From: Candidatus Helarchaeota ASGARD archaeon Hel_GB_B
GTDB lineage: Archaea; Asgardarchaeota; Lokiarchaeia; Helarchaeales; HEL-GB-B
Length of the DNA stretch: 19,989 bases
Direction: 5' to 3'
Assembly (NCBI GenBank): GCA_005191425.1
Contig: SUPR01000068.1
Coordinates: 1 to 19,989 of the forward strand
Under the pieces are notes generated by a model. The model had not been told where the DNA came from. It did no database searches and was given only the letters and a program-made list of their open reading frames with translations. Shown one piece after another: positions 3 through 17,485 of the stretch (positions within the stretch are counted from its first letter, which is position 1; the number at the start of each line of letters is the position of its first letter). The translations under genes and the position numbers were made by a program.

Positions 3-3000
3 TTCAGTATTTCTTGCCTGGACAATTAAATTAAGACTTAATCCAGACCAATTTTGATAGTATGGTTCACCAGTATATTTTACATAGAATTGTACCAAAT
101 GTCCTGTTGCACTTAACGACCCAAAAACTGTCGTGTTGATAGACAAAATATAATACCCAGGACTAGCCCCTACATAGACATTCCAGTATGAAGGATCTAT
201 ATTAGTACAGTTAATATACACACCAATTTTATCAGTAATTGTCCCTACATCACTTATTGGACTTGAGTAATAAGTATCCCAATATTTTATAGTTATATTC
301 GCTAATTCACCATAAGAAGTAGCAGTTGGTGGGGTCAATATAACTTGTGTATCAATTGGCCTGACCCTCATTATTACATTCATTGACCTGTCTGTATAAT
401 TTGCACTAGATGCATCAACTCGTAATGTGAAATAACCAGAATTTGGAGGAGCATATAATGATGTATTTACAGTTACATTGTATACTCCATTACCGTAATG
501 GAAATAGCTCCAATAAGAACTATTCCAATAAGTTCCAAAGTCTATACAGTACAAAGAAATAGTAGTATCACTTATTACTGACCCATCTAATTTTGTATAA
601 GTAACATTAAATGTAGCATTAACGTTCCAGACCACTTCAATTGGATAGTCAACGCCCATAATAGAAGTTTGGGGTTGAATTCTAAAAGTAATATTCAATT
701 CTTTTGATTGAACTAAGGAGCCAGCAGAGATATTTAAAGTAAGATAATATTTTCCGCCAATAACAAGTCCTAATGCAGTTGATGCATTAATTAAAAATTG
801 ATATCGCCCATCATCGCCGCTATATGCTCCAATTGCCCAGCTTGAAGTGGATTGGTTCCAGCCATAAACAAATAATATATTGGGGTGAGATGCATTTAAC
901 CAATTCCACCTTAATATTACATTACCGGTACTATTTACAATTCCTTCACCACTTTCTGCATCAATATAATTTATTGTAATATTTGTAAGTCCATCAATAA
1001 TTTGAGATGCAGGTGCAAATGGTGATGTAAATTGAGTATAACCACGTCTAATAGTAAATGTAATATTTGAAATAGTGCGGGAATCATAATTTGTTTTATT
1101 AATTTTAACACTTACTTTATAAGTCCCAAATTCATGGAGATTATTTGGCCCCATAAATATCCTCAATTCATACCAGCCGTTCCCTTGATAATTTACAGTA
1201 TAATTTGATGAGTAATAGAATGAACTGGTAATATTTACATCATTGATATCATAAATTGCTGTTACATTTAATTCTGCCCCAGAGATTGGACTACCACCTT
1301 CATCAAGATTGGTATATCTAAAATCAATTCCAAAAGAACCGGGGACATATTTTACACTCCCAGGGGGAATATATTCAAGTAATGATGTAATGTTTCTAAT
1401 ATTAAACGGAACAATAATTGATTTATTATAATATAATGAGTCGGAAATCCAAGAAACATTAATTTGGGCATAATAACCACCAGTAAGTCCCAAGGAAGAG
1501 GTATCAAGTGTAATATTATACCATCCATTACCCATTTGATTTTTCATGCTAAAAATCCAATATATCAGCCCAGAAACTTCATCAGTCAGTCCAACATCTC
1601 TAAATACTTGGAATGATATTGATACATTTCCAGCATATGTAGTAAGCCATGGAATCTGAGGATTAGTATCATTATTTATTCCCACAGAGGCACCAGAGGT
1701 ATTATCTTGATCAGTATATCTGAATTTGAGAGTAAGATTATATAAATAGGGGACAATATCAGGAGTTAAGTAGATTAAATTAGTTTCACGTGTTGCAATA
1801 ATAATATCAATCAAAGTTGAAGAATTATAATAACCATAAGCAGAATATATGGTAACATTCAATTGATGGCGACCTACAGGCCATTTCGATATGTCGCGAG
1901 TATCTATATCCAGTAAATATCCATTACCATCTTGGCTATAAGTTAATTTGACTCCTTGAGTTTCATTTATTGTAATATCGTCGGCATAGATAACGGATGG
2001 AGATAAGATTTGATTGTTATCTAAATCTTTTAAGTAGACATTCAAAGTGGCATTTTTACCCCATTTTATTATTTGTGGGACATCATAAATGACTTGAGTA
2101 TATCTGGGACGTATTTGCACTTCTACATAATAACTTTTAGTAATATAATGAGGCTTAGAAACAGTAATATTGATATAATAAGTCCTAATGCTTGTCCAAG
2201 AAGTATTTATTTCAATCTGGTAATAATAGCCATAAGAGCTTACTAATGGGTTTGATATGCTATAATAATCATTCCCATCATTTGACCAATTTACTTCAAC
2301 ATTGCCTGTTAAATCAATGGTATGGTCCAAATCACGATATGTAATACTTATAGTTTTATTATTACCGCGTGGATGATTAGAAATTATGGATGGATCTACA
2401 ATCAATTCTGTTTTAATTGGAGTAATAATAACTTCAAAATCCATATATCGTGTAGTCCAATTATTTTTTGAGGCTTTAATGGAGAGATAATAATGTTTTT
2501 CACTTAAATCACTTATATTTCCATGGAAAGTAATTTTATATGTATTATTGGAAAATGGACCAGCTAGAGACCAATTTAAACTAGAAGCATGACCACCTTC
2601 TAAGACAGAAATAGAAACTTGAGGACCAGACAAATTTAAATAGGGGCTATTAACAGTATCTTGGTACAAAATTTCAAGTGTAAAACTGTCATTCCAAGGA
2701 ATTGAAACATAAGCAAAGGAATATGTGGGCCTAATTAATTGAGTTGAGCGATTCAATATATATAAAGTAAGATAAATTTCTCTTGACTGGTATCCAGGTG
2801 CACTTACATTAATTCTTAAGTTATATGTACCTGGAATAATTTCATTATTAGCATTAATATCTAATTTATAAAAACCGCCCCCAATACTGTTTAAATCTAA
2901 AATGGTCGATATATCGGGCCACCCAGTTAAATTTACTTTTGCGTTATCAACTCCAATTTCACTCGTAATATTGAAAAAGTATACTTTAACTTCGAATGAT

Positions 3001-3803
3001 TCATTCCAATAAATTTGAGCAGAATAAAGATCGGTAATATTATTATAAGTTAACCAACCCGATCCGCTTGGAGGATGATCTATAGAAGTCCTTACTAAAT
3101 CCAGGTCAGAATCAGAATATACTATTTGAATTCTTACATTAAAAGTTTGAGTTTCAAATTTATACTGATATGGACTTGACTCGACCACATTCATAGTGAT
3201 CCTATACTCGGCATGGTCATGAATTTCAGCAGTATTTATTTCATAATACCAAGTAATCCCGTCAGGTTTAAGTGAAAAATAATCAATTGTCCCATTCAAA
3301 TAGTCAATTTTCACCTCAACATTAGTCCATGGAGATGTCCCATTTTTAATATTAGCTTGTTCAAATTCGTCATAAAATTGAACTGTAATATTATAATCAT
3401 TTATTTCTAATGTTTCAGCATAATAGGTTGTCAGGTTCCATTTTTGTTGAGGAGTAATTACATCTGCAGAGACATCTACAGTCTGATTAATAAAATATGG
3501 CCTTATTATTGAGTCAAAATATTTCTTGAATAAATAACAAGTAACATTTTGTGGTCCGGCTTTTAAGGCAGAGGTGGGTAAGTTAATAGTATAATTTCCT
3601 TTATTCACATTCCTTCCTTCTGTATAACTTGTATAATTGACAAGGACATATGAAGTTGAATTATATTCGATATAAAAATGACCATTAGAAACAGCATTAG
3701 ATAATTGGTCAGACCATCTTGCCTTAAATGGTAAAAAGCTTGGTTGTAAATAGCTATTTCCATAATCAAAAGATTTATCAATATAAATAAATACATTAGT
3801 TTT
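3..3803 (-). repeat. Protein-level tandem repeat array (11 complete units plus the start of a 12th) inside the giant ORF
   Basis: Units share the pattern T-x-hydrophobic ... (W/Y)-x-x-x-x-x-hydrophobic-x-hydrophobic-x-Y-x-D ... (GNG)-x-Y-x-hydrophobic-x-hydrophobic-x-T ... G-x-Y ... hydrophobic-x-hydrophobic-x-(I/V)-x-x-(R/I). Examples: STQLIRP..PWNDSFTLEILYQD, YTQVIYD..KWGKNATLNVYLKD, QMGNGWYNITLDTS, YQGNGWYELRI, HYGNGVYNVTVNTS. The units are diverged at DNA level. Confidence 0.85.
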
Positions 3804-6137
3804 TCTCCAAACTTCGAAATTTATATAATTAAATCCTATTTTTGAAACAGAACTCCCGCTTATACTATTGTTCCACCGTACTATTGACCTATAAGTTCCA
3901 ATTGAATTAGGAGCGACCAGCCAAGTCATATTATAGACACTACTGGTAATTGAAGAATAGAAATCATGTCGAATTTCAATATTAACTTGCGTCTGGTTAA
4001 CATCTTCAATTTGAGCAACAGTACGGCTAGCCATTCCTTGAGTCCAAGGATATGAAGTATTAATGAAAATTTGAGTCCTTGAATTATTATTTGGATAAAA
4101 TTTATTAGAATCAGTCCAAGTCCCGGCTGTTTCAATCTGACTTTTAATATCATATATGTAATTTGGTGCATATAATCTAATTTTCCATAGCCCATCATTA
4201 TTTTCAGTGAAATATTTATAGAATACCATTGTATTATTCTGATTAACATCACTTGGTTTTATAACTAGCATATAATTAGTTTGATTTTTAATTTCATAAT
4301 TTACTGCCGATCCTGGTATCCAAATTCTGTTAGGATCCCAATCATTTGGAACAGTTACATTAAAACTAAATGATGTAAGATTTGCTAATGAAGTTGGGTC
4401 AAAATAAATCCACCATGTTACTCTAGTCATATCTTGGGAAGAAATAGTAAAATTACTTAACGCACTTGCTACTTTTGTTTCATTTAATCTTAAATATGCG
4501 TTAAAAGTAACTGAAAAACTTGAAGATATTGAAAAATCAAATCTATGTTTATTACTATTCCAATTATCATTAATAGTGGCAGTTCCACTCCCATAAGACC
4601 CCGTGATTTGATATGCAGCTGATCCGTGTGAAACATCTAGCACATTCATATTTACATTTGAGTCATCTGGATCTAATTCACAGACCATATTTATCGTAAT
4701 ATTATCAAATCTAATTCCCATTGGATATTTAGAATTAAAATCAAGTCCAGCTGTTGTAACCCCAAGTCTGATCGTAAGATTAGTCGTAGTACCTAATGTA
4801 CTTAAATCGCCTAAAATGTTAATTGGATCAGCTTGTCTCCATGTTGTTTCGATATTAGACAAAAATTGATACGTCCCTTGATAAGATATATAATGTTTTG
4901 AACCCCACTTACCATTGCTCCCAACTTGTGCCCATATATATGAAGATGCCCCGCCGGATATTGTATTATTTCCTCTAAAAGCAAAATTTAGATTACTTGA
5001 AATTATACTGCGACCTTTAAGAGAATTGGAAGTAGTTTGATTCCAAAATGCTTCAGACCCAGTATTTATTTTCTTTTGATAGATAATAGTAAGATTAACA
5101 TAATTAAACCACCCATTCGCATCAATATATCCATTTTGGTCGCCCAACCATGTTGATCTTCCAGCAATTTGTAGTCCACATTCAAAACCAAATGCAAGGG
5201 TCCAACTCGATCCACTTTGTAAAATAGATGTAACATCTTTATTGGAAACAGTTTTACTTTGGGCATTTGGCCATGTATATGAAGTCCCATCAAATTCTAC
5301 GCTATTAATATAAACATGCCCAATTGCAAAACCTGATGGGTTCTGCGGATTTTGACCCCAACTATGGGCAGTATCAAATATCCTATAACTATAACTTAAA
5401 TAAGCTTTAGTGACTATTATATCGGTCGTTGATAAAGTTATTGTTTGATTCCATTTAACAGAGGGACCTTCGGATACTGAATTGCCATCAGGAGCATATA
5501 CATCATGATAAAAGTACGCAACACCCCCGTCTCCATGAGAAGTATCATGGCCAACAGTATCAGGAGTGTCCTCATCAGGATCGCCATATGCACTTGTCCC
5601 GGTATACTGATTCCAGCCGTTGAGATTAGAAGTAAAATCAATGTTTTGATTTGCTTTTGTACTCTCCCATCCTTTAATTATTATCTCTAAACTATCACCC
5701 CCACCACCAGGTGTATTGTCTGCATTAAAATTAAAATCAATATCGCTGGTATCCCCGGATTTAGAATTATACCAATTTAAATGCGTTGTAATCATTGGAT
5801 TATCAACCCATTGACCACTTTCTCTTAAATTTGATATCGAAAGATACGTTTCATATCCGGTCCAAGTCGCTGGCACAGTCCCATATATAGAATCACTAGG
5901 AGTTAAACCATTAAAAGAGCTCGTATTAAGTGCCTGTTCACCTATTTTAATATTTATCCCGGGCCCAGAATACTCTAGATCAGTATACGAATAATCATTA
6001 TTTATCGTAAATGGGTTATTAACTACTTGATAATTATTACCAATAAAATTTAAATTATAACTAATAATAGAAAAGGAAAATTCAATTAAAATAAAAAAAA
6101 AGATCATTAAGTAAAAATTATTTTTTCTTTTAATCAT
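3..6137 (-). CDS. Giant secreted/cell-surface repeat protein, 3'-partial (2045 codons in window, no stop before the edge); N-terminal jelly-roll-like region followed by at least 11 tandem Ig-like beta-sandwich repeats
   Basis: I read the minus-strand frame by hand from ATG (6135-6137) to base 3 and found no stop codon. It starts MIKRKNNFYLMIFFFILIEFSFSIIS (basic residues then a hydrophobic stretch, signal-peptide-like) and has an AAGAGTGA SD-like site upstream. It is N/T/S/Y/I-rich with about 75 N-x-S/T sequons by manual count. Repeats of about 105-135 aa start near 3803. It is absent from the ORF track. Confidence 0.95.
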   Translation of the reverse strand, partial: MIKRKNNFYLMIFFFILIEFSFSIISYNLNFIGNNYQVVNNPFTINNDYSYTDLEYSGPGINIKIGEQALNTSSFNGLTPSDSIYGTVPATWTGYETYLSISNLRESGQWVDNPMITTHLNWYNSKSGDTSDIDFNFNADNTPGGGGDSLEIIIKGWESTKANQNIDFTSNLNGWNQYTGTSAYGDPDEDTPDTVGHDTSHGDGGVAYFYHDVYAPDGNSVSEGPSVKWNQTITLSTTDIIVTKAYLSYSYRIFDTAHSWGQNPQNPSGFAIGHVYINSVEFDGTSYTWPNAQSKTVSNKDVTSILQSGSSWTLAFGFECGLQIAGRSTWLGDQNGYIDANGWFNYVNLTIIYQKKINTGSEAFWNQTTSNSLKGRSIISSNLNFAFRGNNTISGGASSYIWAQVGSNGKWGSKHYISYQGTYQFLSNIETTWRQADPINILGDLSTLGTTTNLTIRLGVTTAGLDFNSKYPMGIRFDNITINMVCELDPDDSNVNMNVLDVSHGSAAYQITGSYGSGTATINDNWNSNKHRFDFSISSSFSVTFNAYLRLNETKVASALSNFTISSQDMTRVTWWIYFDPTSLANLTSFSFNVTVPNDWDPNRIWIPGSAVNYEIKNQTNYMLVIKPSDVNQNNTMVFYKYFTENNDGLWKIRLYAPNYIYDIKSQIETAGTWTDSNKFYPNNNSRTQIFINTSYPWTQGMASRTVAQIEDVNQTQVNIEIRHDFYSSITSSVYNMTWLVAPNSIGTYRSIVRWNNSISGSSVSKIGFNYINFEVWRKTNVFIYIDKSFDYGNSYLQPSFLPFKARWSDQLSNAVSNGHFYIEYNSTSYVLVNYTSYTEGRNVNKGNYTINLPTSALKAGPQNVTCYLFKKYFDSIIRPYFINQTVDVSADVITPQQKWNLTTYYAETLEINDYNITVQFYDEFEQANIKNGTSPWTNVEVKIDYLNGTIDYFSLKPDGITWYYEINTAEIHDHAEYRITMNVVESSPYQYKFETQTFNVRIQIVYSDSDLDLVRTSIDHPPSGSGWLTYNNITDLYSAQIYWNESFEVKVYFFNITSEIGVDNAKVNLTGWPDISTILDLNSIGGGFYKLDINANNEIIPGTYNLRINVSAPGYQSREIYLTLYILNRSTQLIRPTYSFAYVSIPWNDSFTLEILYQDTVNSPYLNLSGPQVSISVLEGGHASSLNWSLAGPFSNNTYKITFHGNISDLSEKHYYLSIKASKNNWTTRYMDFEVIITPIKTELIVDPSIISNHPRGNNKTISITYRDLDHTIDLTGNVEVNWSNDGNDYYSISNPLVSSYGYYYQIEINTSWTSIRTYYINITVSKPHYITKSYYVEVQIRPRYTQVIYDVPQIIKWGKNATLNVYLKDLDNNQILSPSVIYADDITINETQGVKLTYSQDGNGYLLDIDTRDISKWPVGRHQLNVTIYSAYGYYNSSTLIDIIIATRETNLIYLTPDIVPYLYNLTLKFRYTDQDNTSGASVGINNDTNPQIPWLTTYAGNVSISFQVFRDVGLTDEVSGLIYWIFSMKNQMGNGWYNITLDTSSLGLTGGYYAQINVSWISDSLYYNKSIIVPFNIRNITSLLEYIPPGSVKYVPGSFGIDFRYTNLDEGGSPISGAELNVTAIYDINDVNITSSFYYSSNYTVNYQGNGWYELRIFMGPNNLHEFGTYKVSVKINKTNYDSRTISNITFTIRRGYTQFTSPFAPASQIIDGLTNITINYIDAESGEGIVNSTGNVILRWNWLNASHPNILFVYGWNQSTSSWAIGAYSGDDGRYQFLINASTALGLVIGGKYYLTLNISAGSLVQSKELNITFRIQPQTSIMGVDYPIEVVWNVNATFNVTYTKLDGSVISDTTISLYCIDFGTYWNSSYWSYFHYGNGVYNVTVNTSLYAPPNSGYFTLRVDASSANYTDRSMNVIMRVRPIDTQVILTPPTATSYGELANITIKYWDTYYSSPISDVGTITDKIGVYINCTNIDPSYWNVYVGASPGYYILSINTTVFGSLSATGHLVQFYVKYTGEPYYQNWSGLSLNLIVQARNTE

Positions 6138-6142
6138 AAAAT

Positions 6143-6150
6143 TCACTCTT
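6143..6150 (-). promoter_or_regulatory. Shine-Dalgarno-like site (AAGAGTGA) of the giant ORF
   Basis: Lies 5 nt upstream of the ATG at 6137. The identical octamer precedes the ZIP gene. It resembles the GGAGGTGA complement of the archaeal 16S 3' end. Confidence 0.6.
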
Positions 6151-6659: not shown

Positions 6660-7988
6660 TCATAAAAATTCACTGGGTACCAATAAAGGATATGCCCACA
6701 TTGTTATAAATAAAATTATAATTCCAAGTAATAGAAGAATTGAAAAAATAGTTAATTTGATAAAGTATCTTGGCTTATATTTACTCTCAATGACTTGAAT
6801 TACGTCATTATTTACAATCTTTATATTAATATTATTTTTTTTAGTTAAGTATTTGAATATAGCATTTAATTTATTTTTATTTTTATTTCTTTCATCATAA
6901 ATAATCTTGTATAAAATTACTATAAACAAGGGAGAAAAATAAATGAGAGATAACATTGAATATGCAAGATTAATAAAGCATGAACTACTTGAAATAAAAA
7001 TAGAAATAAAAGCTTCACTAAATTTAAACATAACCATAGCATAAATAGTCATAACATACAAATTTAAGCTCCCAATAATACTTCTTATAGTAGGATATAG
7101 GAACTTTTTTTTGCCTGTTATGTCTAAATTAATGCTTCTTTTTATAAAAATATACGAAAAACTCAATGCAATTAAAATGGTTAATAATACAGGGTGCCCT
7201 ATACCAGTTGCATAACTCAATTTGGGGTCTAACAAAAATGAAAAAAATGCCCTGAAAAAGTGATTCCATAAAATATCATCATAAGGTAGTTCCCATGGAA
7301 AAAAGAAATAATCGGTTATAACCACAACTTGGATAAGGATTGCTACTCCGACCACGGATAATTTAATAGTCCCGGATAAGTTTGCTCTCGAAAAAGTATA
7401 AAGAATAATACAACCAATAAAACATACAAAAACATTAAACCCAAAATATTGTACCCAATGTCTTAAATTAATATCAAAACTTTGAAGTTCAAAAATAGTC
7501 ACTCTAATGACAACAGAAATAAAAAATACAAAAATTAAAATAAACCAGCCAAGATATTTAACTATAATCTTTTTATATCCTTTAAATTTATATTCGTAAG
7601 GAAATTTTTCAATTATATCAAACATTCTTTTAAATATATTCTTTTTGGGCTCTTTTTCTATCAATTTTTTCTTGGATAGACTGTCAAATTCAGATTTTTT
7701 AATTAGACCCATTTCTTTTGTAAATAAAAAACGCTCGATAGAAATCATTAGAAGAATATAAAAAACAGTAGCAAAAATAAATAGGAAGATAGTAATTGAG
7801 CTAAATGGGTCAATTAGAAAATTGAACATAAAAAATATTCCAAGAATCATTAATATTATAAAAATTATAAGATTTAAAAATGATAAAATTAAATTTTTCC
7901 TTGCTATTTTTACCTCATTTTCAAGCCTTCTTTTATTATTGTTTGATACCCTAAATTTTTTAGAAGAATCCGGCAAAAAGTATCGCAC
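6660..7988 (-). CDS. Polytopic membrane protein of unknown function (about 9-11 hydrophobic segments)
   Basis: 442-aa ORF with a GTG start. Many 18-25-aa I/L/F/V stretches are separated by K-rich loops. No family motif recognised. Confidence 0.85.
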   Translation of the reverse strand: MRYFLPDSSKKFRVSNNNKRRLENEVKIARKNLILSFLNLIIFIILMILGIFFMFNFLIDPFSSITIFLFIFATVFYILLMISIERFLFTKEMGLIKKSEFDSLSKKKLIEKEPKKNIFKRMFDIIEKFPYEYKFKGYKKIIVKYLGWFILIFVFFISVVIRVTIFELQSFDINLRHWVQYFGFNVFVCFIGCIILYTFSRANLSGTIKLSVVGVAILIQVVVITDYFFFPWELPYDDILWNHFFRAFFSFLLDPKLSYATGIGHPVLLTILIALSFSYIFIKRSINLDITGKKKFLYPTIRSIIGSLNLYVMTIYAMVMFKFSEAFISIFISSSSCFINLAYSMLSLIYFSPLFIVILYKIIYDERNKNKNKLNAIFKYLTKKNNINIKIVNNDVIQVIESKYKPRYFIKLTIFSILLLLGIIILFITMWAYPLLVPSEFL

Positions 7989-8047: not shown

Positions 8048-9610
8048 TTAAATGATTTTTCCTTTTCTATGTTTTAATTTTGTGTTTTTTGACTTTTTTT
8101 TATGATAAATTGCTTTTCTATAATAATTAATTGAAATCGTAAGGTTAATAATTAAAATAATTAGTCCAATAATCATAAAAATGATAATATAAATAATTAG
8201 TTGGTCTGAGATTTGTGGGAAACTGTTTGGGTCTAGAGGATTTGTCCCGATTGAGACTTCCAGTCCGTCAGAGTATCCATCACCATCAGTATCACTATTA
8301 TTTACATTTGTTTTATAAATATATTCCAAATAATTAGTTAGCCCATCATTGTCGATGTCCTGAAGAGCGTCTAACTTATTAGTAGGGGCAAGTCCATTTA
8401 AAACTTCCCAACCATCAGGCATTCTATCAGAATCAGTATCAGAGTTGTTCGGTAATGTATTATATATATATATTTCATCCCAATCATTTAGCCCATCAAA
8501 ATCAGTATCAAGTTTTAATGGATCCGAATGATAAATATGAATTTCATCTCCGTCAGATAGGTTATCGTTATCGGTGTCATTATTGCAAGGATTTGTTTGG
8601 TAAAAGATTTCCTCTCCATCTAATAAATTATCATTATCTGTGTCCGGGTCGGAAGGATCAGTAAAATATATTTCAATTTCTTCATAATCAGAAAGATTAT
8701 CATGGTCACTATCTAAATCATTTATTTTATTATTATGATAGATATTATACTCACTTGCCTCTTCATAAATTCCTCTATAGTTATCAATGATCCAATTATT
8801 ACTAATTGTATTATTATAGGCTAAATTTAAATGAACCCCATATTCGGTGTTATTATTGATAGTACTATTCAAAATTTGATTATAAAAAGAGAATAATATA
8901 ATATTTATACCAGATTTATTGTTTAAATTTATAGTGCTGTTAAAAATAACTGAGTAATTGGATTGGACAATTTCTATACCATAATAATCATTCAATTTAA
9001 TAGTATTATTAAAAAAATTATTTTTAATAGAAGATTCGACTTTTATTCCGCTTCTAAAATTATTAGAAATGAAATTATTTGAAAAATTGTTATTATTTGA
9101 ATTAGAAATTATCTTAATCCCATAATATTTATTTGAAAAAAAATTGTTTGCATAGATTTCTGAATGTGTTAATTGAAATCCATATAATCCGCTATTGCTA
9201 AATAGAACAGTATTATTATAAATTATTGCATTTGTAACATTTGAGAGAGACAAGCCATAAGTCCCATTATATAAGGTACAATTTCTAAGAATAAAATATT
9301 TATTGGTATTTCTAATTCGAATACAGAATCCATTATTACCGTTAATAGTTTTGTTTTCAATAACAAATGGTGAAATTTTAGTCCCATTTCCATAATCTGC
9401 TACCATTTCAAGCTGGGAATTGTTATCTACATCAATAAATGATTTTTTAAAAATAATAAATTTTTTATCAAAACTACTTTTAATAATTCCACTTTTTCTG
9501 ACCAATGAAAAATTAACATAAAAAATGTAAATTGATGATAATAAACATAAAAAAATGAAAAAGACCCTTAAATTCTTTATTTTCAATAGTTTAAGATTCA
9601 TTTTTTTCAT
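8048..9610 (-). CDS. Membrane-anchored secreted protein: right-handed parallel beta-helix (NosD/PbH1-like) + 7 TSP3-like Ca-binding repeats + C-terminal TM helix and basic tail
   Basis: N-terminal hydrophobic segment (VFFIFLCLLSSIYIFYVNF) is followed by GNGTKISPFVIEN, then Asn-ladder repeats (GI.I.S.NN.I.NN.I..N). DxDxDxLxDxxE repeats come next, then LIIYIIIFMIIGLIILIINLTISI and KKKSKNTKLKHRKGK. ATG 9610 is preferred over the track's TTG 9649, which overlaps cooC. Confidence 0.85.
   Translation of the reverse strand: MKKMNLKLLKIKNLRVFFIFLCLLSSIYIFYVNFSLVRKSGIIKSSFDKKFIIFKKSFIDVDNNSQLEMVADYGNGTKISPFVIENKTINGNNGFCIRIRNTNKYFILRNCTLYNGTYGLSLSNVTNAIIYNNTVLFSNSGLYGFQLTHSEIYANNFFSNKYYGIKIISNSNNNNFSNNFISNNFRSGIKVESSIKNNFFNNTIKLNDYYGIEIVQSNYSVIFNSTINLNNKSGINIILFSFYNQILNSTINNNTEYGVHLNLAYNNTISNNWIIDNYRGIYEEASEYNIYHNNKINDLDSDHDNLSDYEEIEIYFTDPSDPDTDNDNLLDGEEIFYQTNPCNNDTDNDNLSDGDEIHIYHSDPLKLDTDFDGLNDWDEIYIYNTLPNNSDTDSDRMPDGWEVLNGLAPTNKLDALQDIDNDGLTNYLEYIYKTNVNNSDTDGDGYSDGLEVSIGTNPLDPNSFPQISDQLIIYIIIFMIIGLIILIINLTISINYYRKAIYHKKKSKNTKLKHRKGKII
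8222..8713 (-). repeat. Seven coding DxDxD(G/N)-type calcium-binding repeats (bacterial TSP3-like)
   Basis: DSDHDNLSDYEE, DTDNDNLLDGEE, DTDNDNLSDGDE, DTDFDGLNDWDE, DTDSDRMPDGWE, DIDNDGLTNYLE, DTDGDGYSDGLE; most are followed by (T/S)(D/N)P. Confidence 0.85.
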
Positions 9611-9632
9611 ATTAATTAACTTTTTATAATAT

Positions 9633-10427
9633 TTAAACGCGTTTTTCAATATTCATAATAATTTGTTCATATAAATATTTAATTACTTCAATACCTTTGG
9701 AATTTTCGTCATTATCTATAGGAGCAATTGATTTTAAATCTGCTTCTTTTATTTTTTGGTCTAAAGGAATATTAGATAGAACTTCAATTCCAAGTTCTTT
9801 AGCTTTATTTTTTATAAAATCCAGTTCAAAATCGGATGAGATTTTATTACCTACTAAAAAGATTTTTTTAATGCCGAGTTCAGAGGCTAAATCTCTTATG
9901 GTTTTTGCAAGGACAATAGACCGATTTCCAGGTTCTACAACTATAATCATAGCGTCAACTGCTTTGGCGGTACCTCTTCCTAGGTGCTCAATGCCAGCGA
10001 CCATGTCTAGAATAACAACGTCCTTAGTTTCCAAGATGAGGTGGTATATTAATGCCCGAATTAATGCGTTATCGGGGCACATACAACCACTTGCTGGTGT
10101 TTGGACAGTACCCATTACTAATAATCTGACTCCATCAGGGCCTATTACTTGGAATTTATCGGGTAAGTCATCGACCTTGGGGTTTAGTACAAATACACCA
10201 CCTTGAGTCCCAGCGCGTTCTTCAATTATTTTCTTTTGCTCAGAAATTGGCTTGATTTTCTTTAAATCCTCGTTAGAAATTCCTATAGCTGTTGATAGGT
10301 TCATACTTGGATCCGCATCTATTGCAATAACCCTATAACCATTTCTTGCAAATAGCCTTGAAAGAGTCCCTGCTATTGTGGTCTTTCCAACACCACCTTT
10401 TCCAACAATCGCAATTTTATAGCCCAT
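9633..10427 (-). CDS. cooC: CooC/AcsF-family nickel-insertion ATPase (CO dehydrogenase/acetyl-CoA synthase maturation factor; MinD/SIMIBI class)
   Basis: Deviant Walker A GKGGVGKTT, IDADPSMNL, Ni-binding CxC motif in GCMCP, DMVAGIEHLGRGTAKAVD and VGNK. A GTGAT SD-like site lies upstream. Confidence 0.93.
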   Translation of the reverse strand: MGYKIAIVGKGGVGKTTIAGTLSRLFARNGYRVIAIDADPSMNLSTAIGISNEDLKKIKPISEQKKIIEERAGTQGGVFVLNPKVDDLPDKFQVIGPDGVRLLVMGTVQTPASGCMCPDNALIRALIYHLILETKDVVILDMVAGIEHLGRGTAKAVDAMIIVVEPGNRSIVLAKTIRDLASELGIKKIFLVGNKISSDFELDFIKNKAKELGIEVLSNIPLDQKIKEADLKSIAPIDNDENSKGIEVIKYLYEQIIMNIEKRV

Positions 10428-11202: not shown

Positions 11203-12546
11203 ATGGAAAAAAGTTTTAAGGCAAGCATTGGTTTTGATAATACACAAAATGAGCGAGGAAAATTAGAGGAGAACTATACTAAATTCAAATCTATAATTAT
11301 AGATGAAGGTCATGAAATCAATTCAAAATTTGAATTTCCAATTTCACTTGGTCAATTGTCGAAGTATGACATAGTATTTTTTGCATGCCCAGATAGGTCG
11401 AAATTTCGGGAATTTGAAATAGAACAAATTATTAAATATGTAAAAAATGGTGGTAATGTAGTTTTATTAAGTAATGCTGGTGGAGATAAAGGGTTAGGTA
11501 CAAACCTAAATGAAATTGGTAAAGAATTTGGGATTACATGCAATAATGACCAGATTTGTGATGATGAACAAAATTATGGAATAAGGACACTTCCAATATC
11601 TCAGAATTTTAATTTACACCCAATAACGACTGAGATCGAACTTTTATTATTACCAGGTGCTTGTAGCTTAAATGTATCTAAAGATGCAACGGTAATAGTA
11701 TCTTCAGGAGAACATGCCGAACCACCAAATGCACCAGTAATCGCTGTTGCGGAAAAAGGACTTGGTAAATTTGTATTTTTTGGGACTTATGAATTGTTTA
11801 GAGATAATATTAGGGGGGGTATTCAAGTTATTCAGCACCGAATTTTATTAAAAAATCTATTAAATTGGCTATTTGAAGATATGGAAAAGAAAAGACTAAT
11901 ACTTAATATTCAAACTTTGGCTAACGCCGTTGTTCTGAAACTTAAAAAGAAAGAGAAAAAGGAAAAAGGTATTGAACCAATTAAAATTGTTTCTACCAAA
12001 CCAGTTATAAGGACTCCTGATGGTAAAATTTCCCCAGAGTCCATGCTTGACCAGATTATTATATCTTTAAAACAACTTCAGGAAATTAGTGGAAATTTAA
12101 ATATTATTGATAGAAACATAACAGAATTTGCTCGCGAGATTAAACTGTTAAGAAATGATATTACTTCAATTCCAAGCGAAATGGACAATCTTACAAAAGA
12201 AATTTCAAATATATCACTATTATTAAAAGATTTACAAGAAGAAATAAAGGAAATCAAAATTGCTAAAAGTCTTGAAAAAGCTATAGAAAATTTTCAAGAT
12301 TTTAAATTAAATTTCGAGTCTCAAATAGACATAATTTTAAATAAAAACATTAACCCAATTAAATTGGAAATTTCTGAAATAAGTGAGTCCGTTAATTTGA
12401 AAGACAAAGAAATAGAAAAAATCAAAGAAGATTTAGTTTATATTAAAGAAAATTTAGTCTTAAAAAAAGATGTTGAAGAAATAAAAATAGAATTAATTGA
12501 TAGTATCAAAAGTTTTTTTGAAAATTTAAAAAATCAGGGCCAATAG
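11203..12546 (+). CDS. IFT52/GldG-like (GIFT, class-I GATase-like fold) domain protein with C-terminal coiled coil; no signal peptide
   Basis: Residues about 5-223 read IGFDNTQNE...LSKYDIVFFACPDRSKFREFEIEQIIKYVKNGGNVVLLSNAGG...TNLNEIGKEFGITCNNDQI...HPIT...GKFVFFG...LLKNLLNWL. This matches the remembered IFT52 N-terminal pattern (P..KF...E.E.(I/L).KY...GG.V.......GG......TN.N.....(E/Y)GI..NND). A K/P-rich linker and heptad-rich C-terminal ~170 aa follow. Confidence 0.75.
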   Translation: MEKSFKASIGFDNTQNERGKLEENYTKFKSIIIDEGHEINSKFEFPISLGQLSKYDIVFFACPDRSKFREFEIEQIIKYVKNGGNVVLLSNAGGDKGLGTNLNEIGKEFGITCNNDQICDDEQNYGIRTLPISQNFNLHPITTEIELLLLPGACSLNVSKDATVIVSSGEHAEPPNAPVIAVAEKGLGKFVFFGTYELFRDNIRGGIQVIQHRILLKNLLNWLFEDMEKKRLILNIQTLANAVVLKLKKKEKKEKGIEPIKIVSTKPVIRTPDGKISPESMLDQIIISLKQLQEISGNLNIIDRNITEFAREIKLLRNDITSIPSEMDNLTKEISNISLLLKDLQEEIKEIKIAKSLEKAIENFQDFKLNFESQIDIILNKNINPIKLEISEISESVNLKDKEIEKIKEDLVYIKENLVLKKDVEEIKIELIDSIKSFFENLKNQGQ

Positions 12547-12640
12547 TTAAAATTCTTTTATTTTTTTACAATTTATAATCTTTCAATTACTCTTTTTTAA
12601 AAGAAATACTTAAATTCTCCAAAATTTAATTAATATTATA

Positions 12641-12651
12641 ATTTTTATATA
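12641..12651 (+). promoter_or_regulatory. Candidate TATA box (TTTTTATATA) for the coiled-coil-profilin gene
   Basis: About 35-45 nt upstream of ATG 12686. A GGAGA SD-like site lies just before the ATG, and T-runs follow the upstream stop codon. Weak because the background is AT-rich. Confidence 0.35.
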
Positions 12652-12685
12652 CCTTTCACTAATAATTATTTCTGGAGAGATAGTA

Positions 12686-15199
12686 ATGTCTATGAGTAGC
12701 CTTGAAAAAGAGATTGAAAAATTAAAAGCAGATATTGATTTCAGAAATAAAAGAATTGAAAAACTAGAATTAGAAGTTGCAAAAAATAAGACGGATGCCA
12801 GATTAAAAGACGAAAAAATTGAAAAGCAACAAATAGAAATAAAAAATAAATTGGAAGAAATTGAGAGAAAAGACGCAGAAATTAAAACATTAAAAGAAAA
12901 ACTGGAATCACTAGCTACTGACCAACTTGAACAAGAACTAAATTCATTAAAAACACTCAGTCAAAATCAAAAAAAGGAAATTGATTCTTTAAAAATTGAA
13001 AATGAGAAATTAATATCTGAACTTGATAAAGCAAATAAAAAAATTGATGAATTAAATTCAACTTTAGAATCTCAAAAAGAAAATATCGCGTCATTAGAAT
13101 CTCAATTTTCTGATGCTCAATCTAAAATTAAAGAAAAAGAGAAAGAATTAATCGCAACGAATATTAAAAATTCTAAGCTGGAAGATTCGATTAAAAATCT
13201 AAAAAATTTATTAGACGCCAGTAATGATGAAAAAAACAAGTTATATGAAAATTTAGAGAATATTAATAAAAAAGTTTCAGAACTTGAAAAACAAATACAG
13301 GAAAAAGATGAAAAAATAGAAAAAATTAAAAATGAATTAGAACTTACAACTCAAATTTCCGATAATAATAAACAAATGGTCGATGATTATAAAAAACAAA
13401 TTATTGAATTAAATAATAAACTCACCAAATATATTAACGATTCGGAGGGAAAAAGCCTTAAAATTGACAATTTACAAAAAGAATTAGACAAATTACATGC
13501 AGGAGTCGACCTTTATGAGTCCAAAATTAAAGAATTGAAAGACAAAATTAATGAAAAAGAAGAAGAGATTCAAAAATTAAAATCAAGTAGTAGTAGCCCA
13601 TTAGAAGATAATTTAAAAGTGGAAGAGTTAAACAGACGTATTAAAATTTTAGAACTTGAACTTAAGGATACCAAGAAGGAGTTAGAGGAAGAGAAAAGTA
13701 AAAAAAGAGTGAAAGAATCTGAAAAAGCAGTTATATCTCCTAAAGATATTTCACTTGAGTTTGATATTGAGAAAATTTTGATCGGTAATCTCACAGATTC
13801 AGATAAAGAACAAATAACAGAACAATTTAAAAAGCAACAAAATTTGATTAAAGAATTTATGACGGTAAATAATAAACAAAAACTACAAATTGAAAAATTA
13901 GAAAATAAAATTTCCAAAAGAGACGATGAAATAGAAGATATTAAGAAAAAAAATAAAGAATTAGAAAAAGAAATTAAAAAATTATCTAAAGAATTAAAGA
14001 AAAAATCCCATGTAATTAAAGAATTGAAAAGTGAAGTTGATCTAGAAGAAGCAATTGACCAGATTGATAAAATTGGAGAATATGAAAGCAGATTTGAAGA
14101 AATAAATAAATTAAAAGGTTTATTAGAAAAAGCAAATATTACAATAGAGGGCCAAAAAAATATTATTAAAGACCTAGAAAATACAGTCGCTACATTAAAA
14201 AAAGATACAAATGTACAAGCAGCACAAAAACTCAGAGAATCATATGAACAATATATAATGAACCTCCAAAAAGAAGCGTATGATAATAAATATCAATTAG
14301 AAAATGCATTAAAAAGAATTGAAGATTTGGAATTTGAATTAGAAAAATATAATAAATTATTTAGTCAATACGAATCTCAAATTGAAAAAATTGGTAAGAT
14401 TAGTGAGGGCGTCTCTTCAGATATTCCCTTGGATGAATATACTTCAATTCCAAGTAGCCAGCCTACGGATGAAATAAATTATAATGAATATGAACAAGGA
14501 AAACCAGCTTTTGTCCCTAGTGAAACAAATTTAAAACCCTCAGAATTATTTGGGACTCGACCAGCTCCAAATAAAGTAATCGAGCGAGCGAATGAATCCA
14601 CAAATGAATTATTGGGTAGTAAATTAATAGGTGAATCGGACGACCTAAACCAAAATAGAGGATTATTAACTCCTGCTAATATATCACAAGATAGTAATTT
14701 ACTTACACCAGATGACCTAAAAAGTGATAATAAAGTAAAGGATGGAGAATTATTAGGAAGTTCAAGCAGTGGTGGATTATTAACGGGAGAAACAGAACTA
14801 AAATTACTACCAGAAGAGGGTAAATTTAGCTTATTAAATAAAATAATTAATCAATTTATTAAATATTGTAACAATGTTGACGATTCGGCATTATGTATGT
14901 TTGATGGACTTGTCTTATCTCAAACTTTTGATTGGGACATTTCTGCAGATATAAAAAGAGTAATAAATGAATGGAAAGAGGAATCTACCTCAATTTTTTT
15001 GAAAGGGACTAAATATGCAACTTTAAAAGTGGGAGATGATGTATTAGTAGCCACCAGTACACAGGGAAAAGGACATCTACTATGTATCTCAATTAATGAA
15101 GATTTGTTTATAATATTTGTTTTAGATAAAACTGCAGACCCACTGACTATTTTTGATGATTTTGAACCCTATAATGAGCAATTACGAAGTTTATTATAA
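12686..15199 (+). CDS. 837-aa protein: about 570-aa coiled coil + acidic low-complexity linker + C-terminal Asgard-type profilin domain
   Basis: Residues 5-570 are E/K/L-rich heptads with no Walker motifs. Residues 573-713 form an S/D/E/P/G-rich linker. Residues 714-837 carry DGLVLSQTFDWDISADI, TSIFLKGTKY, VATSTQGKGHLL and EPYNEQLRSLL, matching remembered Loki profilin motifs (DG.I..QT.NW.IS.D, TS..IQG.KY, TN..GKGH, Y...L..L(I/L)-COOH). Confidence 0.85.
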   Translation: MSMSSLEKEIEKLKADIDFRNKRIEKLELEVAKNKTDARLKDEKIEKQQIEIKNKLEEIERKDAEIKTLKEKLESLATDQLEQELNSLKTLSQNQKKEIDSLKIENEKLISELDKANKKIDELNSTLESQKENIASLESQFSDAQSKIKEKEKELIATNIKNSKLEDSIKNLKNLLDASNDEKNKLYENLENINKKVSELEKQIQEKDEKIEKIKNELELTTQISDNNKQMVDDYKKQIIELNNKLTKYINDSEGKSLKIDNLQKELDKLHAGVDLYESKIKELKDKINEKEEEIQKLKSSSSSPLEDNLKVEELNRRIKILELELKDTKKELEEEKSKKRVKESEKAVISPKDISLEFDIEKILIGNLTDSDKEQITEQFKKQQNLIKEFMTVNNKQKLQIEKLENKISKRDDEIEDIKKKNKELEKEIKKLSKELKKKSHVIKELKSEVDLEEAIDQIDKIGEYESRFEEINKLKGLLEKANITIEGQKNIIKDLENTVATLKKDTNVQAAQKLRESYEQYIMNLQKEAYDNKYQLENALKRIEDLEFELEKYNKLFSQYESQIEKIGKISEGVSSDIPLDEYTSIPSSQPTDEINYNEYEQGKPAFVPSETNLKPSELFGTRPAPNKVIERANESTNELLGSKLIGESDDLNQNRGLLTPANISQDSNLLTPDDLKSDNKVKDGELLGSSSSGGLLTGETELKLLPEEGKFSLLNKIINQFIKYCNNVDDSALCMFDGLVLSQTFDWDISADIKRVINEWKEESTSIFLKGTKYATLKVGDDVLVATSTQGKGHLLCISINEDLFIIFVLDKTADPLTIFDDFEPYNEQLRSLL

Positions 15200-15244
15200 T
15201 AAAAATCTTTTTATTATTAAGCTTTTTTTCATAGGTAATTCTAT

Positions 15245-17485
15245 ATGATACCACTAACTTCTCAAAAATTTTCAGAAGTTTTTGGTGTAAATTCATCTAT
15301 TTATTATGAATATAAAAATGAAATTTCAGATTTATTTAGAACTAACAATAATTATATAGAAATAATGAGTGATAAAGAACAATGGACCAAAAAATTTAGT
15401 TTATTATATAAAAAATCAGAATTGAATGAAGATCTATTCATCAAACATTCATATATTTCCTTATTGATTAAAATTATTATTGCAAAAAAGGTTCTTTTAT
15501 TTAAGAAATGGACAGACCTTGAAAATTTTAAAAATACTCTCGATGAAAAAAAAATAGACATTTTTAAAGATGAATTATTTAAGTGGAATATACAAATCAA
15601 TAAAATAAATAAAATGATTTTTAATGAAATCGATAAATACAATTTTAAATCAATGGACCTCTTTAATTTATTATATCAAGAAATGTTTACTATTAAAACT
15701 AGACGTAATCTTGGAGAATATTATACACCGCCTGAATTGGCAAAATTAATGGTAGATGACAGCTATAAACTTGGGGATTATGTATTGGACCCAAATTGTG
15801 GGAGCGGTACGATTCTTATTGAAATTATATTAAAAATTATAAGATCAGATATTCCTGACACTGACAAAATTAAATATTTAAATCGGATCTATGGGTTTGA
15901 TATAAATCCAATAGCAATTTTAATTGTTAAAGCAAATTTATTGTTAATTTATTATTTAAACAATTTAAAAGATACCTCAATTAATATTTTTCTTTTAAAT
16001 CCATTGTTTGAAAAAGAGTACAAAGGAGCGCAATTTCCTAAATTTGATTTAATTATAGGAAATCCACCATGGATTGTCCTCAATAGTATTCATTCTTATG
16101 AATATAAAGAAAAAATAAGAATGAAAGCATTAGAACTTGGGATAATAAGGGGTGGTAAATACTCAACATCAATAGAAATCAGCTCACTTATTTTTGAAGA
16201 TGTTTCACAATATTTTTTGAAGAATGGAGGAATTATATTCTTTATTATGACAAATGGGGTTATGAATGGCGATCAACATTCAAAATTCCGCACTTTTAAA
16301 AATTTCAAAGAGATAACCATTTGGAAATTTACGGAGGATATATTTAGAATTAATAGCATCTGTTTGAAAGCAAAAAAAGGTTTTAGACCAATTCTTGAGC
16401 GATTAAAAATAAATGTAATTGAATTATTTTGTATTAAAAAAGATTCTAAGTGGGAATTCAAGTTCAAAAGACCAGAAATTTATGTTCCATACAATTATAA
16501 TACAATTAATGAAAATTCAAAAATTATAAGAAGATTTATCCCATTAAAAATATTAGAATTATTATTACCCCAAAAAAAATCAGAATATTCCAGTAAATTC
16601 TATCAAGGCGCGTCATTAATACCCAGAAATTTAATTTTTATTAATATAGATCTTGAAATTAATGAAAAACTTGTTAAAATATCACCCTATATGGATTTTC
16701 AAGCCAAATATCCCTGGAATAAAAAACCTTTTGACAACGCAATTATAGAAAAAAAGTACATTTTTAATGTGGCAAAAAGTACTGACCTCGTCCCATTTAA
16801 GTTGTTAACTACCCATTACGTTGTTTTACCTATAAATAAAAAAGATTTCAAGTATGAACCAAAATTATTGAATAAATATGCACAAATCCATTTTAATTTC
16901 CTGAATAATTATTATAAAGAAAATATAAAAGAGGGAACTAAAATTGGGAAATTGTGGAATGAAATTAATCATTTTAATAAATTAATTAATCCAAATCAAA
17001 AAAGAAAAATTAAAATAATTTTTAATGGAATCGGTAGCATTGTCAAATCAGCTGTTTTAACAAATTATGAATTAATTGATACGAGTCTTTATTATTATTC
17101 GGCAAATAATTTGGACGAAGCTTATTATCTTATGGCAGTATTAAATTCGCCTTCGATAACTTATTCTATCCAATATTTTGGGAGTATTGGAAAAAGCGGA
17201 ACCTTGCGAAATATTCATAAACACCCATTAAACATTCCAATTCCTCTATACAACCCAAATAACGAATTATGTACCAAAATATCAAATCTTGGAAAAAAAT
17301 TAGAACAATTGGTCCAAAGTTTGATCAATGAATGGATAAAGGAAGGTAATAATAAAACATTTATCAAATCACAAATAAAATTAAGACCAAGGGCAATTCA
17401 ACTATATATATTAGAAAATAAATTATTCCAAAAACAATTAAAATACTTAGATAATTTAACAAAAAGTTTAATTTTTGAAGGATAA
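15245..17485 (+). CDS. N6-adenine DNA methyltransferase (gamma class, Eco57I/TaqI-like) with fused C-terminal target-recognition region; no nuclease domain recognised
   Basis: GEYYTP (motif X), VLDPNCGSG (SAM-binding motif I), GFDINP, FDLIIGNPPW (catalytic motif IV). About 350 aa of C-terminal region ending in a YYY..LNS..IP.P pattern typical of TRD-bearing MTases. Confidence 0.88.
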   Translation: MIPLTSQKFSEVFGVNSSIYYEYKNEISDLFRTNNNYIEIMSDKEQWTKKFSLLYKKSELNEDLFIKHSYISLLIKIIIAKKVLLFKKWTDLENFKNTLDEKKIDIFKDELFKWNIQINKINKMIFNEIDKYNFKSMDLFNLLYQEMFTIKTRRNLGEYYTPPELAKLMVDDSYKLGDYVLDPNCGSGTILIEIILKIIRSDIPDTDKIKYLNRIYGFDINPIAILIVKANLLLIYYLNNLKDTSINIFLLNPLFEKEYKGAQFPKFDLIIGNPPWIVLNSIHSYEYKEKIRMKALELGIIRGGKYSTSIEISSLIFEDVSQYFLKNGGIIFFIMTNGVMNGDQHSKFRTFKNFKEITIWKFTEDIFRINSICLKAKKGFRPILERLKINVIELFCIKKDSKWEFKFKRPEIYVPYNYNTINENSKIIRRFIPLKILELLLPQKKSEYSSKFYQGASLIPRNLIFINIDLEINEKLVKISPYMDFQAKYPWNKKPFDNAIIEKKYIFNVAKSTDLVPFKLLTTHYVVLPINKKDFKYEPKLLNKYAQIHFNFLNNYYKENIKEGTKIGKLWNEINHFNKLINPNQKRKIKIIFNGIGSIVKSAVLTNYELIDTSLYYYSANNLDEAYYLMAVLNSPSITYSIQYFGSIGKSGTLRNIHKHPLNIPIPLYNPNNELCTKISNLGKKLEQLVQSLINEWIKEGNNKTFIKSQIKLRPRAIQLYILENKLFQKQLKYLDNLTKSLIFEG

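Follow-up and report, generated by a model that had tools for sequence, protein, structure and literature searches.

A profilin domain at the end of a long predicted coiled-coil rod and a disordered tether in Helarchaeales archaea

The stretch of DNA considered here (hereafter the window) comprises 19,989 nucleotides, positions 1 to 19,989 of contig SUPR01000068.1 from the Candidatus Helarchaeota archaeon Hel_GB_B (assembly GCA_005191425.1). We find that one open reading frame (ORF) on its plus strand, at 12686-15199, places a profilin domain at the end of a long, heptad-rich rod, with a disordered tether between the two. The ORF has 837 codons plus a stop and zero internal stops, and its start codon and N-terminus are kept in its orthologs. 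The initial annotation of the window had described a series of profilin motifs lying in one frame with a long N-terminus and no stop between them; the translation bears this out, and all four of the motif strings that it quoted are present, within residues 739-837.

A full-length AlphaFold2 (AF2) model, built on an alignment of nine family members, divides the protein into three parts. The first is a rod with predicted helices at residues 3-221, 279-297, 308-339, 371-449, 456-506 and 508-570; the second is a disordered linker, or tether, at residues 571-709, with a predicted local distance difference test (pLDDT) of 29-46 and no secondary structure; the third is a folded alpha/beta domain at residues 710-836. 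On the plus strand of the window, rod segment 1 (residues 3-221, predicted to be one helix from end to end, its heptad register almost unbroken) occupies 12692-13348, and the interrupted region that follows (residues 222-370, of low confidence around the short helices 279-297 and 308-339) occupies 13349-13795. Residues 371-449 (rod segment 2) and 456-570 (rod segment 3) are encoded at 13796-14395, the tether at 14396-14812, and the profilin domain (residues 710-837, identified by AF2, Foldseek, and sequence and profile searches) at 14813-15196.

The fusion is real and conserved, and an artifact of assembly or frameshift is essentially excluded, because the same ORF recurs in independent genomes and because contigs from other studies cross the junction without an insertion or deletion. 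A word-indexed search of 5.8 billion proteins yielded P0002 (843 residues) as the sole full-length relative; its head is 82% identical to ours, and its only annotation, in a Helarchaeota metagenome-assembled genome (MAG), is “hypothetical protein”. The gene has the same neighbors there, on a contig of 119 kb. Among the genomes of the order's seven species representatives, the architecture is found again in G004 (853 residues), G001 (802 residues) and G002 (796 residues), and in G003 the N-terminal 464 residues are present before the contig ends. An exhaustive HMMER search, made against 1.84 billion cluster representatives, contributed P0006 (770 residues), P0009 (616 residues, partial), P0017 (426 residues) and P0004 (344 residues); P0006 and P0009 carry merely the annotation of hypothetical proteins from Helarchaeota or Promethearchaeota MAGs. 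The search of Asgard genomes for the same architecture, which the initial annotation had proposed as a check, thus returned orthologs from all five genomes of two Helarchaeales families and from further MAGs; they are 770-853 residues long and share 24-63% identity.

The family aligns over its whole length (alignment A2), with islands of conservation inside the rod. Relative to the two closest orthologs, identity is 84% in the head, 73-78% in rod segment 3, 66-68% in segment 2, 50-59% in segment 1 and 40% in the tether. A gradation by domain of this kind is what a functional multi-part protein under selection would be expected to show. The short forms P0017 and P0004 keep rod segment 3 nearly whole (117-121 of its 121 positions), part of segment 2, the linker and the profilin. 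As a separate observation, P0009 has an extra tail after its profilin (residues 527-616), made of P-P-E-E-E-I-T repeats and then a lysine-rich end.

Logan contigs assembled from hydrothermal-vent and marine-sediment metagenomes of other studies align to the gene at 14243-15165 (X4 record 28), 14397-14821 (X3 record 21) and 14524-15400 (X2 record 14). All three align without a gap, and for the gene as a whole not one insertion or deletion is listed. Read support across 14400-14900, where the linker meets the profilin, had been a second check proposed in the initial annotation, and these contigs support an unbroken frame there. Some contig “joints” might be taken for deletion variants, and we rejected them: their sides are just 21-22 letters long and they involve other, deeper contigs, which is typical of repeats or of other organisms. 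In the search of sequencing runs, no RNA run was listed for the gene.

As the initial annotation had supposed, the C-terminal head is a profilin and not a Roadblock or longin domain; searches by sequence, by profile and by structure agree on this. Comparison with PDB sequences by phmmer gave matches to 7pbh (E-value 3.4e-11), 5zza (3.4e-08), 5zzb (2.2e-07) and 5yed (1.2e-06); Asgard profilins were the only significant matches, next to one non-significant match to a lipase (0.84). A family profile drawn from an alignment of 37 related profilin domains (A1) recognized the five solved Asgard profilins at E-values running from 4.7e-36 (7pbh) and 2e-31 (5zza) to 1.1e-12 (6yrr, 1e-12), with plant profilins at about 1e-3 and an Asgard Roadblock protein at 0.75. 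Nineteen of the 37 A1 members match Pfam Profilin, and none matches any other family. For Roadblock and longin, there was no Pfam match at E-values up to 1.

Profilin, Roadblock and longin domains have one common core fold; in profilin, a three-strand motif replaces half of Roadblock's central helix and contacts actin (PMC10933270). The AF2 model of the head, computed with A1 (pLDDT 92.8, predicted template modeling score 0.85), begins with a pair of helices and ends with a single one; between them lies a seven-stranded sheet, of which two strands come before a short central helix and five after it (listed as H-E-E-H-E-E-E-E-E-H). The profilin-specific three-strand motif is present in this model as S-I-F-L-K-G-T-K-Y-A-T-L-K ... 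V-A-T-S. In a Foldseek comparison with the PDB, complexes of Odin and Loki profilins with rabbit actin ranked first (TM-score by target 0.78-0.87, root-mean-square deviation (rmsd) 1.9-2.9 Å); the top 16 matches were all profilins, with Thor and eukaryotic proteins after those of Odin and Loki, and Roadblock proteins appeared from rank 17 on with rmsd values of 6-7 Å. The residues that are invariant in the family (K776, T790, Q793, G794, K795, H797-C800, D818, L820 and D825) sit in the three-strand region, in the next strand and where the C-terminal helix begins. We infer that the head binds actin monomers. The alignment with Loki profilin-2 (5zzb) has an 8-residue gap in our protein just before TSIFLKG, whereas that with Odin profilin (5zza) has none; the Loki loop is absent, as had been suspected.

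The N-terminal region has strong coiled-coil character. A heptad test placed 79% of residues 1-570 in windows with hydrophobic enrichment at the a and d positions, against a mean of 11% and a maximum of 31% in 100 shuffled sequences. Residues 3-221, which AF2 models as a helix with a pLDDT of about 77-88, hold one heptad register with a single break at residue 77; their a positions are mainly isoleucine (30) and leucine (15), and their d positions mainly leucine (29). Isoleucine at a with leucine at d is, as Harbury reportedly found in 1993, the classical preference of parallel dimers. This pattern, and this pattern only, suggests a parallel dimer, and the rod is most likely a parallel two-stranded coiled coil with two or three hinges. 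Low-confidence breaks (pLDDT <50) fall at residues 248-279, 298-309 and 336-357. The helical residues sum to about 460, or about 68 nm end to end, with about 32 nm in the first helix alone. The initial annotation had envisaged a coiled coil of about 570 residues, up to about 80 nm long if unbroken. Its length in residues holds, but its continuity does not, given the breaks seen in the AF2 model and in the register; since the rod is hinged, 80 nm stands as an upper bound only.

Several rod elements are conserved. The first ~35 residues and an L-x-T-[ED]-x-L-E-x-E-L motif (residues 76-84) of rod segment 1 are kept across families. The interrupted region, residues 222-370, carries a conserved G-V-[DN]-L-[YF] motif; over residues 222-307 it reaches 63-64% identity with the two closest orthologs, as against 50-59% for rod segment 1. 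A conserved S-E-V-[DN]-[LI]-E-x-A-I break parts rod segments 2 and 3, which contain Y-E-[QNS]-[YR]-I; Y520, E521 and I524 are invariant. When the segment 3 region (residues 440-575) was searched against 161 genomes of the class, only orthologs matched, and no profilin-less, rod-only relative was found. Pfam matches to ATG16, Fez1, Rab11-FIP3, Tropomyosin, AAA_13, Spc29, BRE1 and others were set aside, all of them lying far under their cut-offs, as generic coiled-coil similarity. An ESM Atlas feature search with the whole protein gave matches below 0.8 throughout, which is noise level.

Between rod and head, the AF2 model has about 140 disordered residues, in agreement with the flexible linkers that had been anticipated. 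This tether is rich in serine, glycine, proline, aspartate and glutamate, with 11 prolines in 142 residues and no polyproline run; it is not a proline-rich region of the FH1 kind. It contains repeated short x-L-L-[G/T/S] motifs and a conserved N-L-K-P-S-E-L-F segment. The LL dipeptide occurs six times, against 2.1 expected from composition (p about 0.002), and it is enriched in seven of eight relatives as well. Among the 2,950 ORFs of at least 100 residues in the genome, the coiled-coil-profilin ORF is the only one with at least four x-L-L-[G/T/S] motifs within 120 residues. The L-L-[G/T/S] motifs of the tether, together with the conserved N-terminal end of the rod, may be docking sites.

Three or more L-L-[G/T/S] motifs in a window of low hydrophobicity were found in two ORFs of the genome only, those of the coiled-coil-profilin and of an 853-residue actin-related protein. 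We dropped this connection as evidence because the weaker cluster, in the tail of the actin-related protein, is not kept in the orthologs of that protein in the sister family. The actin-related protein (contig C168 of G000, L025:67-2628:-; orthologs L035-L038) combines an actin fold with a winged-helix-like segment and with a long tail that has four to six repeats of [FY]-T-F-[QE]-K-I-D...E-W and a conserved acidic/basic C-terminal end. It is present in two families of the order (f1 and f2) and was not found in a third (f3), which is also the distribution of the coiled-coil-profilin.

Directly upstream of the profilin gene, at 11203-12546 on the plus strand, lies a gene for a 447-residue protein with an IFT52-type GIFT domain (Pfam IFT52_GIFT, 68 bits) and a C-terminal coiled coil. 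The same gene directly precedes the coiled-coil-profilin gene on the P0002 contig and in G001, G002, G003 and G004. An AT-rich spacer of 139 bp (12547-12685) separates the two in the window; it contains a TATA-like T-T-T-T-T-A-T-A-T-A at 12642-12651 and a G-G-A-G-A-G at 12674-12679, before the ATG. The corresponding spacers of the orthologs measure 154-373 bp. At 139-373 bp, the spacers are long enough to hold separate promoters, and the coiled-coil-profilin gene may have its own, to judge from the sequence of the spacer. Of the 161 genomes of the class, 160 have homologs of the GIFT-coiled-coil protein, as a rule more than one, and the third family of the order (two genomes) has the GIFT gene without a coiled-coil-profilin neighbor. 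Since the GIFT-coiled-coil gene is nearly universal in the class, the profilin fusion was added beside a widespread gene. The conserved adjacency is a lead that makes the GIFT protein a candidate partner and the first candidate for an anchor. In the G003 ortholog of the GIFT protein, a K-P-P-P-P-L tract stands between the GIFT domain and the coiled coil.

The remainder of the window can be described briefly. In both families, a gene for a ParA/MinD-type ATPase is found no more than a few kb from the profilin gene; here, it is at 9633-10427 on the minus strand. The same strand carries a beta-helix/TSP3-repeat protein (8048-9649), a 442-residue ORF with no Pfam match (6660-7988) and a giant open-ended ORF (3-6146) of more than 2048 residues, which reaches 3939 residues on the P0002 contig; the order of these four opposite-strand ORFs is kept on that contig. 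Downstream, 45 bp 3′ of the profilin gene, a 746-residue N6-adenine DNA methylase of the Eco57I type is encoded on the plus strand (15245-17485). A methylase gene (750 residues) is likewise downstream on the P0002 contig, but not in the sister family.

Across 400 genomes of the phylum, profilin matches (E-value up to 1e-12) in open frames of more than 500 residues were found only in families f1 and f2 of the order, and frames with such matches elsewhere in the phylum were 127-270 residues long; more divergent profilin fusions would be missed at this threshold. In a maximum-likelihood tree of the 37 domains, the eight coiled-coil-type heads group together (support 96/89). Their sister group consists of the heads of the winged-helix-profilins, a second fused family (the pair at 98/97), and both stand apart from the short stand-alone profilins.

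The genome encodes an actin of 378 residues (contig C118; Pfam Actin, 446 bits) and four profilin paralogs: the coiled-coil type, a winged-helix-profilin of 509 residues, and two short ones of 144 and 123 residues. The winged-helix-profilin gene (contig C118 of G000, L004:373-1902:+) is separated from the main actin gene by about 5 kb and from the gene for the 144-residue profilin, on the same contig, by about 10 kb. Its relatives (L020, L021, L022, P0007, P0011 and P0013) are 595-740 residues long. In this family, TrmB/MarR-like winged-helix repeats are followed by a proline-rich linker and then by profilin at the C-terminus. Two metagenomic proteins display further arrangements. P0026 (390 residues) has a Ras/Rab-like small GTPase followed by profilin, and P0023 (315 residues) has a short coiled coil and a P-P-L-P-P-P-S-L-H-P-P-P-P-P tract, then profilin and a cysteine-rich tail. 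According to the tree, these two fusions arose separately inside a clade of short profilins.

What might such a protein do? We lean modestly toward the view that it is a genuine, lineage-specific protein of the actin cytoskeleton that serves as a dimeric scaffold to cluster profilin-actin. Residues 1-570 would form the parallel two-stranded, hinged rod, and each chain would continue into a flexible tether of about 140 residues that ends in a true profilin domain. Each head would bind the barbed face of one polymerizable actin monomer, in the manner of free Asgard profilins. With the heads covalently joined to a presumably oligomeric rod, at least two profilin-actin complexes would be held within a few tens of nanometers of the point at which the rod is anchored, and the local supply of monomers for filament growth would be raised. 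The N-terminal rod end and the L-L-[G/T/S] motifs could serve as docking sites, with the GIFT neighbor as the first candidate anchor. The conservation of the actin-contact strands, in a protein that is best conserved in its head and least in its tether, argues for this proposal, as does the presence of a cognate actin in the genome.

Several considerations weigh against the clustering scaffold. Pfam Profilin (PF00235), the sole family to match residues 700-837, scores 21.2 bits, short of its 25-bit cut-off. The fused clade stands on a long branch (0.68) away from the short profilins, and with such divergence the ligand of the head could have changed. Two short profilins are kept in the genome, so the fused one need not do the housekeeping job. 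The coiled-coil-profilin is confined to two families of one order. The rod has hinges, and its parallel, two-stranded form is putative. Finally, Pfam searches at E-values up to 1 detected no filament-binding, barbed-end-binding, WH2, FH1, FH2 or EVH element, and clustering of monomers need not, for this reason, mean their delivery to filaments.

A first alternative casts the protein as a structural cross-linker. The rod would form part of, or bind, a coiled-coil scaffold comparable to intermediate filaments, crescentin or tropomyosin, either filamentous or cortical, and the heads would attach that scaffold to actin, for instance at barbed ends, rather than supply monomers. We regard this as unlikely, although it has attractions: the rod is very long and regular, with 219 residues in one uninterrupted helix, the GIFT neighbor also has a coiled coil, and a ParA/MinD ATPase gene is nearby in both families. 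Sub-threshold matches to Tropomyosin, Rod_CreS and Filament point the same way, but they show mere coiled-coil character and all fall far short of their thresholds (Tropomyosin, 19.2 bits against 38.6; Rod_CreS, 10 against 100; Filament, 10.1 against 40). A floppy tether of 140 residues fits capture and delivery better than rigid linking. Moreover, the short members of the family keep mainly rod segment 3, the tether and the head, from which it appears that the long rod is not essential.

Another possibility goes further than clustering: the protein could be an archaeal functional counterpart of a formin or of Ena/VASP, an anchored oligomer that feeds tethered profilin-actin to growing filaments and thereby directs the site of polymerization in cells that have neither formins nor strong binding of profilin to polyproline. 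The anchor would be the N-terminal end or the L-L-G motifs, perhaps by way of the GIFT protein. We consider this proposal rather unlikely.

We judge it a distinctly improbable alternative that the head has been repurposed, having lost actin binding to become a Roadblock-like platform for a small GTPase or a partner helix, on a long membrane-trafficking tether that works with the GIFT neighbor. The common core fold of profilin, Roadblock and longin (PMC10933270) would permit such a change, the fused clade is divergent and falls under the Pfam cut-off, a GTPase-profilin fusion exists in P0026, and the conserved neighbor is IFT52-like. On the other hand, the three-strand actin-contact motif is kept in what is the most conserved part of the protein, the closest structural neighbors are profilin-actin complexes at an rmsd of about 2-3 Å with Roadblock proteins above 6 Å, and there is no significant Roadblock or longin signal in the sequence.

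It is hardly credible that the long ORF results from chimerism in the assembly, from an overlooked frameshift or stop that would split it into two genes, or from decay of the gene. The genome is a MAG of 182 contigs with an estimated contamination of 4.9%, but six or more genomes or contigs that were assembled independently contain the same ORF (24-63% identity), with start, end and neighbor kept, contigs from other studies span the linker-profilin junction without an insertion or deletion, and conservation is graded by domain.

If the clustering scaffold is the correct reading, the protein addresses a gap in Asgard cell biology. Asgard archaea possess actin, profilin and gelsolin, but no recruiter of profilin-actin to a site of assembly is known (PMC9433394). 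A conserved profilin welded to an oligomeric rod by a flexible arm is a concrete candidate for such a recruiting device, and it may show how relatives of the eukaryotes bring actin monomers to a chosen site. It also suggests covalent tethering as an alternative to the polyproline recruitment practiced by the formins and VASP of eukaryotes. In any case, profilin is not always a free, single-domain protein; together with the winged-helix-profilin and GTPase-profilin fusions, the present protein points to an unrecognized modular use of profilin in the Loki/Hel lineage.

The initial annotation knew of no described profilin on a coiled coil of this size, and the open-access literature, which describes only short profilins, is in accord with it. 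We found no description of the coiled-coil-profilin architecture in the open-access literature on Asgard profilins, nor of the winged-helix-profilin family in the open-access literature. Other papers on eukaryotic signature proteins of Asgard archaea treat profilins as small proteins of the Roadblock superfamily, or treat unusual domain architectures of such proteins in general (PMC10933270 among these). AFDB clusters do hold long unnamed proteins with a C-terminal profilin fold, for example one of 710 residues that is 32% identical. The sequences are thus public but uncharacterized.

The nearest known relatives are the stand-alone Asgard profilins (Loki profilin-1 and profilin-2, and those of Odin, Thor and Heimdall; 5YED/5YEE, 5ZZB, 5ZZA, 7PBH and 6YRR), which are homologous to the C-terminal 128 residues of our protein. 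They have in common with it the fold, the three-strand actin-contact motif, and the G-x-K-Y and G-x-G-H strands, and our head is like that of Odin in being without the Loki loop. Stand-alone Asgard profilins are single domains of 119-148 residues, whereas in our protein the head comes after about 710 residues of rod and tether and belongs to a separate, divergent clade. With 837 residues, the protein is well outside the range of a small single-domain profilin (about 120-150 residues). In a survey of 256 Asgard profilins, the longest N-terminal extension was 25 residues (PMC8410842). The winged-helix-profilins of the same order are more similar in plan. Their profilin is likewise C-terminal, behind a disordered linker with proline or leucine motifs, and the heads are sisters, but their N-terminus is made of TrmB/MarR-like winged-helix repeats and not of a coiled coil. 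Roadblock/LC7 and longin proteins are weak structural matches that have a beta-sheet core flanked by helices in common with our head; Roadblock has a five-stranded sheet and a long central dimerizing helix, where profilin, and the head here, have three strands instead.

Eukaryotes recruit profilin-actin non-covalently, through the polyproline tracts of formins and Ena/VASP. The functional logic of our protein is perhaps alike, in that an oligomerizing element (the coiled-coil tetramer of VASP or the FH2 dimer of formins) is combined with a long flexible arm that holds several profilin-actin complexes close to where a filament grows. There is no homology, however; EVH1, FH1 polyproline, FH2, GAB/FAB and WH2 elements were not detected here, and the profilin is covalently attached rather than recruited. 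Binding of polyproline by the terminal helices of profilin is found in eukaryotic, Heimdall and Thor proteins and is absent in those of Loki and Odin (PMC8410842, PMC9433394).

A precedent for the overall design comes from the Thorarchaeota, in which 1DGelX joins a gelsolin domain to “domain X”, a predicted coiled coil whose function is not known (PMC7444086). Both proteins carry an Asgard actin-binding module on a predicted coiled coil. They differ in the module (profilin here, gelsolin there) and in lineage, and the coiled coil of 1DGelX is much shorter. This precedent shows that the addition of coiled coils to regulators of actin recurs in Asgard archaea.

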